The notes beneath the pieces are model-generated. The model was not told the origin of the DNA. It ran no database searches and saw only the letters and a list, made by a program, of their open reading frames with translations. Below are positions 16,698 to 22,001 of a stretch of 64,000 nt of DNA, in pieces. This DNA comes from Gammaproteobacteria bacterium (GTDB lineage: Bacteria; Pseudomonadota; Gammaproteobacteria; Eutrophobiales; Eutrophobiaceae), in contig JACORW010000018.1 of assembly GCA_016179185.1 (NCBI GenBank), forward strand, positions 5,227 through 69,226. Reading direction: 5' to 3'. Both the position numbers and the translations under genes were made by a program. Positions within the stretch are counted from its first letter, which is position 1. Each line of letters starts with the position of its first letter.

Positions 16698-17915
16698 TCA
16701 GTCCCAGTTCAAGGCGCCACCGGTCTGGTACTCGGTGACGCGCGTTTCAAAGAAATTCTTCTCCTTCTTGAGGTCCATCAGTTCGCTCATCCACGGGAAC
16801 GGATTGGTGGCGCCGGGGTACTGCTCCGGCAGGCCGATCTGCGCGCAGCGGCGGTTGGCGATGAACCGGAGGTATTCCTCGAACATCTTCGCGTTCAGCC
16901 CCAGCACGCCGCGCGGCATCGTGTCCGCGGCATATCGCGATTCCAGTTCCACGGCCTCGCGCAGCATGCCGATGACCTCCTGCTGGAACGCGGCGGTCCA
17001 CAGTTGCGGATTTTCAATCTTGATCTGGTTGATGACGTCTATGCCGAAATTCATGTGCATGGACTCATCCCGCAGGATGTACTGGAACTGTTCGGCGCAG
17101 CCGGTCATCTTGTTGCGCCGGCCCATGGACAACACCTGCACGAAGCCGACATAGAAGAAGATGCCTTCGAACACGATGTAGAACGCGATCAGATCGCGCA
17201 GCAGGCGCTGGTCGTTCTCCGGCGTGCCGGTGTGAAAATCTGGATCCCCGAGGCTTTGGGTGAAGCGCATCGCCCATGCGGCCTTGTCGTGGATGGATGG
17301 GACCTCCCGATACATGTTGTATACTTCGGCTTCATCGAGCCCCAGGGATTCGACGCAATACTGGTAGGCATGCGTGTGCAGCGCCTCCTCGAATGCCTGC
17401 CGCAGCAGGTACTGACGGCACTCGGGGTTGGTGATGTGGCGGTACACGGCCAGCACCAGATTGTTGGCAACCAGGGAATCCGCCGAGGCGAAGAATCCGA
17501 GGTTGCGCTTGATGATGGTGCGCTCGTCCGCGCCCAGCCCGTCCGGGCGGCGCCACAGCGCTATGTCCGCGGTCATGTTGATTTCCTGCGGCATCCAGTG
17601 GTTCGCGCAGGCGTCCAGGTATTTCTGCCAGGCCCACTTGTACTTGAACGGCACGAGCTGATTGAGATCGGCGCGGCAGTTGATCATGCGTTTGTCGTCC
17701 ACGGTGATCCGCGCCGCGCCAAACTCCACGTTTTCCAGTCCGGTGACGCCCTGCTGTCCGCCGTTGCGGGAATCCGGTTGCGGCGCGGCTACTGGTGCCG
17801 GCGCGGGCGCCGGCGGACTGTTCAGGGCGGCCGCCACCGCCAGCATCGGCTCCGGCGCCGCGCTCCTGACGGAGCGTCGTGCGCTGCTGATCGGATCTTC
17901 CCAGTTGGTCACCAT
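16698..17915 (-). CDS. nrdB: Ribonucleotide reductase class Ia beta subunit
   Basis: [22 protein letters not shown] (radical Tyr), EGIFFY, RDESMH and EKNFFETRV. Confidence 0.96.
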
Positions 17916-17951: not shown

Positions 17952-20900
17952 TTACTGGCAGGCCTCGCATTCCGGATTGTCGATGGCGCAGAGCTTGGCT
18001 TGCTCCGCTTCCGCAAAGCCGCGATCCACCGCCGCCAGTTTGTTTTCGCGCCCGCCGCTCAGCGTGCTCTTTTCCACGTGCGTCGCCCCGAGGCTGCGCA
18101 GGTAGTAGGTGGTCTTCAATCCCCGTACCCAGGCCAGCTTGTACAGGTTGTCCAGCTTCTTGCCGTTGGGGGCGGCCATGTAAAGATTCAGTGACTGCGC
18201 CTGGTCAATCCACTTCTGACGGCGGGAGCCGGCCTCGACCAGCCAGCGCGGGTCAATCTCCCACGCGGTGGCATAAAGCGCTTTGAGGTCATCGGAGATG
18301 CGGCCTATGGGCTGCACGCTGCCGTCGAAATATTTCAGGTCATTGACCATGACCTCGTCCCACAGGTTGCGCGCCTTCAGGTCGCGAACCAGGTACGGGT
18401 TCACGACGGTAAACTCGCCGGACAGGTTCGATTTGACGAACAGGTTCTGGTAAGTGGGCTCGATGGACTGGCACACGCCGCAGATGTTGGAAATCGTGGC
18501 GGTCGGCGCGATGGCCATGCAGTTGGAATTGCGCATGCCGACCTTTTGCACGCGCTTGCGCAGCGCCTCCCAGTCCATCCGCACGCTGCGGTCCACTTCC
18601 AGATAGCCGTTGCGCTCCTGCTCCAGGATGCCGAGGGAGTCTATTGGCAGGATACCCTTGCTCCACAACGAGCCCTTGAATGTGGAGTAGGGCCCGCGTT
18701 CCGCCGCCAGCTCCGTCGAGGCCTTGATCGCGAAGTAGCTGACCGCCTCCATGCTGGCGTCTGCGAATTCCACCGCCGCTTCCGAAGCATACGGGATGCG
18801 CAGCCGGTGCAGCGCGTCCTGGAAGCCCATGATGCCCAGTCCCACCGGGCGATGCTTCAGGTTGGAACGGCGCGCCTGTGGGACACTGTAATAGTTGTAG
18901 TCAATGACATTGTCCAGCATGCGCATCGCGGTGCGCACGGTCTGCTCCAGCTTCTCCATCCGCAGGCCGTTCTCGTCCACGTGCTCTGCCAGGTTCACGG
19001 AACCCAGGTTGCAGACCGCGATCTCGTCATCGGAGGTATTCAGCGTGATCTCGGTGCACAGGTTGGAGGAATGCACGACACCGGCGTGCTGCTGCGGCGA
19101 ACGCAGGTTGCACGGATCCTTGAACGTCACCCAGGGATGGCCGGTTTCATACAGCATGGACAGCATGCGCCGCCACAGGTCCACGGCGCGCACCTGCTTG
19201 AAACAGCGGATCTGCCTGCGCGCCGCGGCCGCCTCGTATTCCTCGTAACGGCGCTCGAACGCGGCGCCATACAGGTCGTGGAGATCCGTTGTTTCATCCG
19301 GGGAGAACAACGTCCACGGGCCGTCTTCAGACACCCGCTTCATGAACAGGTCCGGCACCCAGTTCGCGGTGTTCATGTCATGGGTGCGGCGGCGGTCATC
19401 GCCGGTGTTCTTGCGCAGATCCAGGAATTCCTCCACGTCCAGGTGCCAGGTTTCCAGGTAGGCGCACATGGCACCCTTGCGCTTGCCGCCGTTATGCGCC
19501 AGCGCGGCGCTGGTCATGTAGGATGTATCGCCTTCGACTTTCAAATCGCACACAAAGGGCACGGGCTCAATGGCCTTCACGGCGCGTACGCGCGTGAACA
19601 ACCAGTTATTCCAGATCAGCCAGTTACGCTTGTGGATTGGGCGGCAATCCACCAGCGTCGCGATCTCCGGCACTGCCGGTATGCGCAGGTCATAGGCCTT
19701 GACGGTGCCATGAATGTGAGCGGTGGTGCCGTCAGAACGGTGGGCAACATGATCTTGTGCGCGCTCACGGAATTGTCCGGCACAGGGCACGCCCAGGCGC
19801 AATAATTGGTAACGCAGGCCTTCCGCCAGACCTTGCGACGTACTGGTGAAATAGATTTCCTTGCCGCGACTGACGCCGCCGTCCGTTTCCAGCAATCCAC
19901 GAATGAGCTGCAGGGTCTGCGCGTTTGGCAGGTGCATGAACCGGGGCGCAATGCGCTTGTTGCCCTCCGTGTCGTACAGATCCGCATAATCGAACGGCAG
20001 CGTCGGGGCGCCCGCGCCGACGCTACGCCCGGTGGTGCCGTTTCTGATCACGCCGCGCCCCGCAGCCCAATGGATCTGCGCATAGGTTTCGCCACGACCG
20101 GTTTCCCAGCAATGGATGCCACGCTCGCTCAGGTAATCGCGCACGAACTGCAGGTGCGCATCACGACATGGGTGGCCGGACACGCCCCATTGCCTTCCGT
20201 CTTTCGATAGATGGCCATCGCCCAGCAGGATGCCGTACAGGCGGCAATCGTCGGTGTCGAGTCCAGGCACCGGCACGATCTCGCTGGGGATGACTTGCGC
20301 CACGTAGTCGCCGCGTTGCAACTGCCCGGCCTCGACCCACGCCGGGCGGACCTTGCCGCGCTCCAGCCAGGACAGCGTTCGATCGTTCGCCTGTTCCATC
20401 GGCACGCCACGGATCGCCCAGAGCGGATGCCCGGCGGTGACTTTGAGCGGGTGCAGGCTGTGCTTGACGCGGATCTCCACCATGGGATCAGTCTGGTTGT
20501 AAGCCAGACGGTCGGTTACTTCCCGGTAAATGCCGTGCTGGCCGAGCACCAGATCGCCGATCTCAATGTCCTTGATGGACTTGACGCCGGCGGCGGTAAA
20601 TACGCTGGTGTCTGAGGCGAAGCACTGATTCACTGCTACCGCGGTGTCGTTGGCCACCTTCATGAACGGCACCACGCCCTGGGAGCGGCCGTTGGTGCCC
20701 TTGATGTGGGCACCCATGGCGCGCACCCGCGTCCAGTCATTGCCCAGCCCGCCGGCGAATTTGGACAGCAACGCATCGTCCCGGATGGCGCTGAAAATGC
20801 CGTCCAGATCGTCCGGCACCGTGCTCAGGTAGCAGCTCGAAAGTTGCGGTCGCAGCGTGCCGGAGTTGAACAATGTCGGCGTCGAGCTCATGAAATCGAA

Positions 20901-22001
20901 CGATGACAGCTGTTCGTAGAACTCGATGGCGCGCGCCTCGCGGTCCAGTTCCTTGATGGCGAGTCCCATGGCGACGCGCATGAAAAACGCCTGGGGCAGT
21001 TCGAAGCGAATACCGGAATCGGTGTGGATGAAATACCGGTCATACAGCGTCTGCAGGCCGAGATAGGTGAACTGCCGATCGCGTTCCGGCTTCAGCGCCC
21101 GGCCCAGACGATCCAGGTCGTACCGGGTCAACTCGTGATCCAACAGCTCCAGCGCCGCGCCGCGTTGCACGTACTTGCGGAAATAAAGCGGATAGCGATC
21201 GGACATCTCCGCCTGCGTCGCCGGGGTGTCGGCGCCTTCAACGTAGCTCAGGGCCTCGCGGCGCAGCGCGTCCAGCAGCAGCCGCGCCGCGGCCTGGGAG
21301 TAATTCGGCTCCTTCTCCACCAGGGCCCGCGCGCTCATCACCAGCGCCGGATTGACATCGGTCTCCTTGACGCCGTCGAACAGGTTGCGCAAGGCGTCGT
21401 CAATGATCTCGTGACCCTGCACGAACTCGAGCCCGGCGCAGGCCTCGTTGACCACGGCCAGCATGCGCGGCATGTCCAGCGGCCGCCGGCTGCCGTCCCT
21501 CAGTGTGACGTTGATGACGACGGGGCGGGGGGCCGCGCCGTCCTCCGATTGTTTCTGCCGGGCCTTCTCGGCACGCAGCCGGGCGCGCTGCTCGCGATAG
21601 ATGACATAAGCCCGGGCCACCTTCTGTTCGCCGCCGCGCATCAACGCCAGTTCCACGTGGTCCTGGATATCTTCGATGTGGACGGTCCCGCCGCCGGGCA
21701 TGCGGCGCGTCACGGCCCGTACCACCAGGTCGGTCAGATCCGCCACGGACTGATGGATGCGCGTGGACGCCGCCGCCGCGCCCCCCTCCACGTCCAGGAA
21801 GGCCTTGGTGATGGCCACCGAAATCTTGGAGGCGTCAAACGCCGTAACCTTGCCGTTGCGGCGGATGACCTTGAATTCGCCGGGCAGGTGGCTGGTCAGG
21901 TCGGTCCGGTCGGCGGCAACCTGGTCAACGGGGAATTCGGAGATATGAACACGCGTACTGTCAGAAACAAGCGATGCACCCACGGCAGCAACCTTTTCCA
22001 C
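17952..22001 (-). CDS. nrdA: Ribonucleotide reductase class Ia alpha subunit with two ATP-cones and an intein
   Basis: VIRRNG and TLRDG ATP-cones, TPTLFNSG, QLSSCY, SNLCTEI, APTATIS, KTTYYLR and C-terminal CEACQ. Confidence 0.96.
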   Translation of the reverse strand: MEKVAAVGASLVSDSTRVHISEFPVDQVAADRTDLTSHLPGEFKVIRRNGKVTAFDASKISVAITKAFLDVEGGAAAASTRIHQSVADLTDLVVRAVTRRMPGGGTVHIEDIQDHVELALMRGGEQKVARAYVIYREQRARLRAEKARQKQSEDGAAPRPVVINVTLRDGSRRPLDMPRMLAVVNEACAGLEFVQGHEIIDDALRNLFDGVKETDVNPALVMSARALVEKEPNYSQAAARLLLDALRREALSYVEGADTPATQAEMSDRYPLYFRKYVQRGAALELLDHELTRYDLDRLGRALKPERDRQFTYLGLQTLYDRYFIHTDSGIRFELPQAFFMRVAMGLAIKELDREARAIEFYEQLSSFDFMSSTPTLFNSGTLRPQLSSCYLSTVPDDLDGIFSAIRDDALLSKFAGGLGNDWTRVRAMGAHIKGTNGRSQGVVPFMKVANDTAVAVNQCFASDTSVFTAAGVKSIKDIEIGDLVLGQHGIYREVTDRLAYNQTDPMVEIRVKHSLHPLKVTAGHPLWAIRGVPMEQANDRTLSWLERGKVRPAWVEAGQLQRGDYVAQVIPSEIVPVPGLDTDDCRLYGILLGDGHLSKDGRQWGVSGHPCRDAHLQFVRDYLSERGIHCWETGRGETYAQIHWAAGRGVIRNGTTGRSVGAGAPTLPFDYADLYDTEGNKRIAPRFMHLPNAQTLQLIRGLLETDGGVSRGKEIYFTSTSQGLAEGLRYQLLRLGVPCAGQFRERAQDHVAHRSDGTTAHIHGTVKAYDLRIPAVPEIATLVDCRPIHKRNWLIWNNWLFTRVRAVKAIEPVPFVCDLKVEGDTSYMTSAALAHNGGKRKGAMCAYLETWHLDVEEFLDLRKNTGDDRRRTHDMNTANWVPDLFMKRVSEDGPWTLFSPDETTDLHDLYGAAFERRYEEYEAAAARRQIRCFKQVRAVDLWRRMLSMLYETGHPWVTFKDPCNLRSPQQHAGVVHSSNLCTEITLNTSDDEIAVCNLGSVNLAEHVDENGLRMEKLEQTVRTAMRMLDNVIDYNYYSVPQARRSNLKHRPVGLGIMGFQDALHRLRIPYASEAAVEFADASMEAVSYFAIKASTELAAERGPYSTFKGSLWSKGILPIDSLGILEQERNGYLEVDRSVRMDWEALRKRVQKVGMRNSNCMAIAPTATISNICGVCQSIEPTYQNLFVKSNLSGEFTVVNPYLVRDLKARNLWDEVMVNDLKYFDGSVQPIGRISDDLKALYATAWEIDPRWLVEAGSRRQKWIDQAQSLNLYMAAPNGKKLDNLYKLAWVRGLKTTYYLRSLGATHVEKSTLSGGRENKLAAVDRGFAEAEQAKLCAIDNPECEACQ
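19491..20624 (-). mobile_element. Intein with LAGLIDADG homing endonuclease (378 aa), non-canonical Gly+1
   Basis: The insert splits the conserved VAVNQ|GGKRKGA. It begins CFASDT, has block B TAGHP, LAGLIDADG-like LYGILLGDG and LIRGLLETDGG, and ends VCDLKVEG...ALAHN. Confidence 0.93.

Follow-up and report, generated by a model that had tools for sequence, protein, structure and literature searches.

The locus described here raises the question of how an intein could be removed from its host protein when the residue that follows it has no side-chain nucleophile. It lies in a 64,000-nucleotide stretch of DNA ("the window") from a gammaproteobacterium of the family Eutrophobiaceae (GenBank assembly GCA_016179185.1, contig JACORW010000018.1, positions 5,227 to 69,226), where nrdA, the gene for the alpha subunit of a class Ia ribonucleotide reductase (RNR), is interrupted by an intein of 378 amino acids. 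According to published surveys and reviews, inteins sit before Cys, Ser, or Thr (PMC2814812; PMC4031507), and the residue that follows this intein (+1) is Gly. We find that the element is a true intein, mobile and equipped with an endonuclease, and that it belongs to a large family directed at loop 2 of RNR, between a Gln and a Gly-Gly pair. A whole family of mobile inteins thus breaks the rule of Cys, Ser, or Thr at +1 inside an essential enzyme. We establish the anatomy of the element, the conservation of its catalytic residues, the invariance of Gly+1 in a large family, and the dependence of some genomes on the interrupted gene. The last two findings, along with relatives at the same site that have Ser+1, go beyond an earlier interpretation of the window made from its letters alone (the sequence-only reading).

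Anatomy of the intein and its native glycine

The nrdA precursor is encoded by a single open frame on the minus strand and comprises 1349 amino acids when counted from a GTG codon, although its start is uncertain by 19 codons because the database copy (P0003) begins 19 codons later. NCBIfam model NF005544 identifies the host as a PRK07207-type NrdA, with 1681.9 bits against a cut-off of 965, in two stretches. Pfam models find two ATP-cone stretches, the all-alpha domain, and a barrel domain that is split in two around the insert. These domains, the family model, and the adjacent nrdB gene place the protein in class Ia, and the closest solved structure to it is 5im3. The relevant features are as follows.

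17952..22001, minus strand: nrdA precursor open reading frame, class Ia RNR alpha subunit with intein and two ATP-cone stretches
20625..22001, minus strand: N-extein, residues 1-459, ending in DTAVAVNQ, whose final Gln matches E. coli Gln294
19491..20624, minus strand: intein, 378 amino acids, CFASDT...ALAHN, a Hint splicing domain interrupted by a homing endonuclease domain of the LAGLIDADG type
20622..20624, minus strand: TGC codon of Cys1, the N-terminal splice nucleophile, conserved as Cys throughout the 120 close homologs listed
20427..20438, minus strand: block B, T63-A-G-H66 (TxxH), with T63 and H66 at least 99% conserved in an alignment of 120 sequences
20208..20240, minus strand: LAGLIDADG motif 1, LYGILLGDGHL, intein residues 129-139
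19872..19907, minus strand: LAGLIDADG motif 2, LIRGLLETDGGV, intein residues 240-251
19491..19559, minus strand: blocks F and G, with Asp360 (F:4), His377, and Asn378 conserved and Cys359 not
19491..19493, minus strand: AAC codon of Asn378, the terminal intein residue
19485..19490, minus strand: GGC GGC codons of Gly+1 and Gly+2, the first C-extein residues, with no Cys, Ser, or Thr at +1
17952..19490, minus strand: C-extein, running to CEACQ plus the stop codon and holding most of the RNR barrel domain
16698..17915, minus strand: nrdB, encoding the RNR small subunit, immediately downstream of nrdA and on its strand

At the N-terminal junction the precursor reads VAVNQ followed by CFASDT, and at the C-terminal junction ALAHN is followed by GGKRKGAMC (junction codons CAT AAC GGC GGC). 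The sequence-only reading had placed the element at 19485..20630, which corresponds to the intein plus two flanking codons on each side, and had held that deletion of the 378-residue insert restores NQGGKRKGA. Its claim agrees with nrdA in two complete genomes of the same family that lack the intein, in which NQGGKRKGA is uninterrupted. Removal of the insert restores the sequence of these orthologs exactly, and the glycine at +1 therefore belongs to the original extein. A boundary moved by one residue to gain a +1 nucleophile would instead produce VAVNNGGK or VAVNQCGK, neither of which matches the intein-free orthologs, and we rejected this solution.

The proposed position in specificity loop 2 was likewise upheld. 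Alignment with E. coli K-12 NrdA by BLASTP puts the insertion between Gln294 and Gly295, and the Gly-Gly pair of the intein-free ortholog aligns with Gly295-Gly296. Loop 2 comprises residues 292-301 and relays the identity of the bound effector to the substrate site (PMC4728125). The specificity information is carried by Gln294 and Arg298, the backbone carbonyl of Gln294 binds dGTP, and an Arg298Ala enzyme is mostly or completely inactive (PMC4728125).

That the insert is an intein with an endonuclease, as had been proposed, is borne out by its conserved motifs and by its domain and fold assignments. LAGLIDADG_3 is found between the barrel halves above the Pfam cut-off (34.7 versus 22.5 bits). 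The Pfam Hint models that match the intein fall below their cut-offs (Hom_end_hint, 28.1 versus 32.1 bits), and PT-HINT gives no Pfam match to it. An AlphaFold2 (AF2) model of the intein with 15-residue flanks is confident (predicted local distance difference test score, 88.5; predicted template modeling score, 0.86), with both flanks disordered. Its best matches in the PDB by Foldseek are PI-SceI, TliVMA, and PI-PfuI, with E values from 1e-18 to 3e-13.

By most of its anatomy the element is a class 1 intein. A Hint fold with blocks A, B, F, and G is indicated by the AF2 model, the PDB matches, and the alignment; the insertion is precise and in frame within a conserved host site, and its removal restores the host sequence; and all 120 listed close homologs have the N-terminal Cys and C-terminal His-Asn. 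The element departs from this class in having Gly (GGC) at +1, where Cys, Ser, or Thr belongs. Established class 1 LAGLIDADG inteins (PI-SceI/Sce VMA1, TliVMA, and PI-PfuI/Pfu RIR1-1) share with it the predicted fold, Cys1, TxxH, Asp F:4, and His-Asn, as well as precise insertion in a conserved site of a replication-related enzyme, sporadic spread, and retained endonuclease motifs. Unlike in those inteins, Gly+1 precludes transesterification and a branched intermediate. In class 1 splicing the N-extein must be taken over by a Cys, Ser, or Thr at +1, and BIL (bacterial intein-like) domains, which lack such a residue, are likewise unable to form the branched intermediate.

Assignment to the remaining classes failed. 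A class 2 intein has Ala1 and direct attack by the +1 residue, whereas this element has Cys1 and no +1 nucleophile. Class 3 inteins are defined by a non-nucleophilic residue 1 and a Trp-Cys-Thr triplet (PMC2807308). Here residue 1 is Cys and F:4 is Asp360, so there is no such triplet with Cys at F:4. An internal nucleophile of the class 3 kind was also rejected, given Asp at F:4 and the lack of conservation of the nearby Cys359 (F:3).

Type-A bacterial intein-like (BIL) domains are Hint domains that end in His-Asn without a +1 nucleophile (PMC4031507), and the AHN/GG junction conforms to this definition. The two share an N-terminal Cys, and freed-amine ligation is proposed for both. BILs avoid conserved sites (PMC2814812), whereas the NrdA element occupies an invariant loop of an essential enzyme. 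It also has an endonuclease, with LAGLIDADG_3 above its cut-off and both motifs conserved. BILs are not known to carry an endonuclease or to share the mobility of inteins. The element is thus an intein by anatomy, location, and mobility that fails class 1 by its +1 residue, and it resembles type-A BILs in its likely chemistry only.

Conservation and spread of loop-2 inteins

To place the element among its relatives, precursor residues 450-850 were compared with 5.8 billion proteins, which yielded 987 matches at E <= 0.001 out of 8000 scored candidates. In every one of the 120 listed matches (65-100% identity over the region, one being the window's own protein), the junctions read NQ/C[FL] and HN/GG. 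By their source names, the listed carriers include Thiothrix nivea (cultured), Thiothrix subterranea, Thioalkalivibrio thiocyanodenitrificans, Azotobacter salinestris, Nitrosococcus halophilus, Methylomagnum ishizawai, and Melaminivora jejuensis; again judging by these names, T. nivea, Azotobacter, N. halophilus, and Thioalkalivibrio provide homologs in cultured bacteria. Furthermore, the intein is present in 10 of 400 other genomes of the same class, which span nine families, and all 10 copies have the same junctions and Gly+1.

These counts confirm that the absence of a canonical +1 nucleophile is real. A sequencing or assembly error at +1 is ruled out by the 120 listed homologs, the 10 genomes, and metagenome contigs. 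Both junctions are crossed by contigs of public runs X1 and X3 without a single difference, although X1 is possibly the source sample and so perhaps not independent, and coverage of the stretch by X2 and X3 is incomplete.

A wider search was conducted with the intein alone against 1.84 billion cluster representatives, filter-free, which gave 1,486 matches at E <= 0.001. The best 150 were realigned, and 79 of these alignments reach the last intein residue with a residue beyond it. The tabulation of +1 residues at this site, a check that had been proposed, now reads Gly in all 120 close homologs listed and, in the wider set, Gly in 56 (54 HN/GG, 1 RN/GG, and 1 HN/GS) and Ser in 17 (all HN/SG). 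The remaining six of the 79 (AV, EK, CG, TE, SA, and CT) come from truncated proteins or from weak matches to other inteins in the same proteins. All N-terminal junctions of the wider relatives are [ND]Q/C in RNR loop 2. These are therefore site-homologous inteins of one family that extends across several NrdA subfamilies, with identity to the query down to ~26%.

The Ser+1 inteins provide an informative comparison. In the glutaredoxin-fused NrdA subfamily, HN/SG is found in all 21 proteins with an intein at the loop-2 site. Uninterrupted loops in the same subfamily (n = 98) read Q-G-G in 74 cases and Q-S-G in 24, and Ser is therefore naturally tolerated at this position in glutaredoxin-fused NrdA. 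The invariance of Gly+1 is notable because a single-base change to Ser is tolerated in this other subfamily. The Ser+1 inteins (e.g., P0171) share the insertion point, the endonuclease type, and full-length homology with the query (~26-34% identity), but they differ in having a canonical Ser+1 and in lacking Pro after the block-B His (0 of 15). In a FastTree phylogeny of 58 full-length inteins (43 Gly+1 and 15 Ser+1), the Ser+1 inteins form two separate groups among Gly+1 lineages. This pattern, taken from a midpoint-rooted tree read without an outgroup or support values, suggests at least two changes of the +1 state within the family, with no direction of Gly/Ser change claimed.

The splicing residues are strongly conserved throughout. 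Cys1, Phe2, Thr6, Thr63, His66, Asp360 (F:4), Tyr369, His377, and Asn378 reach at least 99% conservation each among the 120 close inteins, in which both LAGLIDADG motifs are also conserved. Cys1, His66, Asp360, His377, and Asn378 each reach at least 90% in both the Gly+1 and the Ser+1 relatives, down to ~26% identity. Likewise, two endonuclease-less derivatives at the same site (P0245, 179 amino acids, and P0209, 289 amino acids) retain Cys1, His-Asn, and Gly+1. Conservation of this kind would be expected only if processing at both junctions were under selection.

A simple frequency filter for residues specific to Gly+1 inteins passed only Pro67 and Asp126, both of which are confounded by relatedness. 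Pro67, which follows the block-B His (20424..20426), is found in 38 of 43 Gly+1 inteins and none of 15 Ser+1 inteins, and it may be a compensatory change or simply reflect shared ancestry.

The possibility that similar RNR insertions were already catalogued, raised in the sequence-only reading, holds in part. For Azotobacter chroococcum and A. vinelandii, a genome paper records an NrdA intein (residues 442-800) with its LAGLIDADG endonuclease, without mention of the +1 residue (PMC4465626). We found no description or test of a Gly+1 RNR intein in the literature searched, with most subscription journals and survey supplements beyond reach. The Azotobacter element was presumably entered in InBase as "Avin RIR1 BIL", which would mean that the anomaly had been noticed and filed as intein-like.

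Processing of the intein and the need for NrdA

Whether the interrupted gene must yield a working enzyme depends on what other RNRs its carriers possess. When the window's own genome (86% complete) was checked for another RNR, a class II NrdJ was found on contig C115, and no NrdD was found. In this genome alone, nrdA could then be dead or dying, with deoxyribonucleoside triphosphates supplied by NrdJ. The presence of this second RNR (1105 amino acids, with an intein of its own) speaks for such a state, but the 1349-codon frame of nrdA is intact, nrdB follows it, and on either side of the insertion the extein matches intein-free orthologs exactly. The same arrangement is also the only RNR in at least three near-complete genomes. 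We therefore regard a decaying nrdA as highly improbable.

The near-complete genomes in question are G072 (96% complete), G101 (100%), and G207 (99%). All of their matches to PF02867, TIGR02504, and TIGR02505 fall inside the intein-bearing nrdA, and PF13597 (NrdD) has no match in any of the three. Because this gene is their sole detectable RNR, these genomes must obtain active RNR from it, barring an RNR in unassembled sequence. The element must therefore be removed, or at least cut, productively.

Two further carriers have unusual RNR loci. Beyond its intein-bearing nrdA, G373 (98% complete) has just one decayed RNR fragment of 137 amino acids. The fragment (L019, G373:C12:35552-35818) derives from the barrel, lies ~6 kb downstream of nrdA, and has one TGA and two TAA codons within its TIGR02504 match. 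In G269 (97% complete), the intein-bearing nrdA frame ends early, at 1232 amino acids, and the final part of the barrel holds two TGA stops (L012/L030, G269:C6:188939-191624). No other RNR match was found in this genome, and the early end might reflect a frameshift, a fault in assembly, or a gene that is broken.

The sequence-only reading had offered three outcomes, namely ligation by the freed Gly amine, a two-chain RNR nicked in loop 2, and a tolerated insert. These remain the right set, among which sequence analysis cannot choose. Our own preference, which we hold with confidence evenly divided between acceptance and doubt, is for splicing without a side-chain nucleophile, as proposed for type-A BILs. 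An N-S acyl shift at Cys1 would first create a thioester between Gln and Cys1. Cyclization of Asn378 would then cut the intein from the C-extein and free the alpha-amine of Gly+1, and direct attack of this amine on the thioester would form the native Gln-Gly peptide bond. Gly would offer the least hindered alpha-amine, which the Hint active site and the paired halves of the RNR barrel might keep near the thioester, and the native fold of these halves would bring the Gln carbonyl and the Gly nitrogen together. We infer each of these chemical steps, as well as a ligated chain rather than two cut chains as the main product.

Several observations are consistent with this proposal. Everything that the aminolysis route would need (Cys1, the block-B His, Asp F:4, and His-Asn) is conserved. 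The AF2 model with its matches to known inteins, the invariance of Gly+1, the endonuclease-less derivatives, and the genomes that depend on nrdA also count in its favor. Splicing through a thioester, Asn cyclization, and attack by the freed amine is possible in type-A BILs, whose C-terminus is His-Asn and which have no +1 nucleophile (PMC4031507). Moreover, the essential role of loop 2, through its dGTP contact and Arg298, would favor an intact Gln-Gly bond.

Other observations weigh against splicing. BILs without a +1 nucleophile yield mostly cleaved products (PMC4031507; PMC7664689), and double cleavage without ligation would explain the retention of Cys1 and His-Asn just as well. Comparison of 43 Gly+1 with 15 Ser+1 inteins revealed no residue that is clearly Gly+1-specific and would explain efficient aminolysis. 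Finally, the NrdJ in the window's own genome means that NrdA need not be essential there.

The main rival is a two-chain RNR. Thioester hydrolysis and Asn cyclization without ligation would leave two NrdA halves that associate non-covalently, with a nick in loop 2. This outcome would require the same conserved Cys1 and His-Asn, and cleavage dominates in Hint domains without a +1 nucleophile (PMC4031507; PMC7664689). A precedent for a divided enzyme is phage Aeh1, whose two-chain NrdA is reported to be fully functional (PMC3045599). There, as here, a mobile endonuclease element (mobE) interrupts nrdA while function is kept; unlike here, the Aeh1 split is at the gene level and at another site, involves no Hint domain, and is accompanied by acquired tail peptides for assembly (PMC3045599). 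These added interaction tails are described as "absolutely essential", and none of the 1200 nrdA sequences covered by a survey in the same report is split (PMC3045599). A nick at the intein site would part the effector-reading residues 292-294 from the essential Arg298 (PMC4728125) and would turn the Gln294 carbonyl into a carboxylate. No gene split at the loop-2 site occurs among the matches listed, where short metagenome fragments are indistinguishable from true splits. On balance, we consider the nicked enzyme unlikely, although it is the alternative to be taken most seriously.

If the precursor were instead left unprocessed, the 378-residue domain would protrude from loop 2 of the active enzyme. 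A tolerated insert would agree with the spatial proximity of the two ends of loop 2 and with the AF2 model, in which the intein forms a domain of its own. However, this explanation leaves the conservation of Cys1, the block-B His, Asp F:4, and His-Asn (to ~26% identity and in the mini versions) unaccounted for, and a 42-kDa domain in the substrate-clamping loop would be expected to block specificity regulation. A tolerated insert is thus very unlikely.

A relay could in principle replace the missing nucleophile, in which the N-extein would move to Cys+9 (GGKRKGAMC) before it reached the amine freed at Gly. All 120 close homologs listed have Cys+9, but so do intein-free orthologs, and the residue belongs to this NrdA subfamily irrespective of the intein. 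Furthermore, 24 of 43 Gly+1 representatives have no Cys in positions +2 to +12 (e.g., GGKRNGAFAAYL and GGGKRKGSFAIY), and no conserved Ser or Thr occurs in this interval either. We rejected the relay as the general route of the family on these counts and give it hardly any credence otherwise.

This family differs from a known case that lacks a +1 nucleophile. The intein-like element of Magnetospirillum magnetotacticum has Tyr at +1, was spliced only after this residue was changed to Cys, and has been treated as defective (PMC4031507). The NrdA family, in contrast, is large and conserved, and in some genomes it resides within the only RNR. If the product is ligated, these inteins would be the first natural class to splice efficiently without a +1 side-chain nucleophile. 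They might then also serve for traceless ligation at Gly, without the Cys, Ser, or Thr scar of current intein methods. Should the enzyme instead consist of two chains with a nick between them, the allosteric specificity of RNR would need to operate through an interrupted loop 2, an equally unexpected outcome. More tentatively, and with somewhat less than even confidence, we suggest that loop-2 RNR inteins represent a natural, old, and widespread mechanistic class that splices efficiently by extein-templated aminolysis, in which Gly+1 may be ancestral and Ser+1 may have arisen secondarily at least twice.

Further inteins and local sequence coverage

Some relatives and carriers show additional arrangements. 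P0184 (1327 amino acids), a distant relative at the same site, has Ser as intein residue 1 and Gly-Ser after the intein (AHAVNQ/SFTGDT...VVHN/GSKRKG). P0079 (2297 amino acids), P0077, P0046, P0023, and others have two or three inteins per NrdA homolog, and the extra inteins beside the Gly+1 intein have canonical HN/C junctions, for example before CNLGSVNL and CYLYYV. Two intein-sized proteins, P0137 (425 amino acids) and P0150 (389 amino acids), are homologous to nearly the whole query (~37-42% identity) and have flanks unlike RNR (CQAFSR/CLAPDTK, and VHN/AVS followed by the end of the protein). They might be relatives that exist on their own or in another kind of host protein, or else artefacts of contig ends.

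The NrdJ of the window's own genome (L002 1303..4620, minus strand, contig C115) carries its LAGLIDADG intein directly before the thiyl-radical Cys. Its junctions, with boundaries judged by eye from the translation, read ATNP/CVTADT...LVTGQ/CGEQPL. This intein has a canonical Cys+1 and seems to end in Gly-Gln rather than His-Asn.

Within the C-extein of nrdA, the summed depth of contigs in the groundwater-metagenome runs rises to 218-869 over 19351..19452, compared to ~10 for the flanks in run X1. Many of the contributing contigs are short and have one or two differences, and they presumably represent the conserved nrdA genes of other organisms in the sample.

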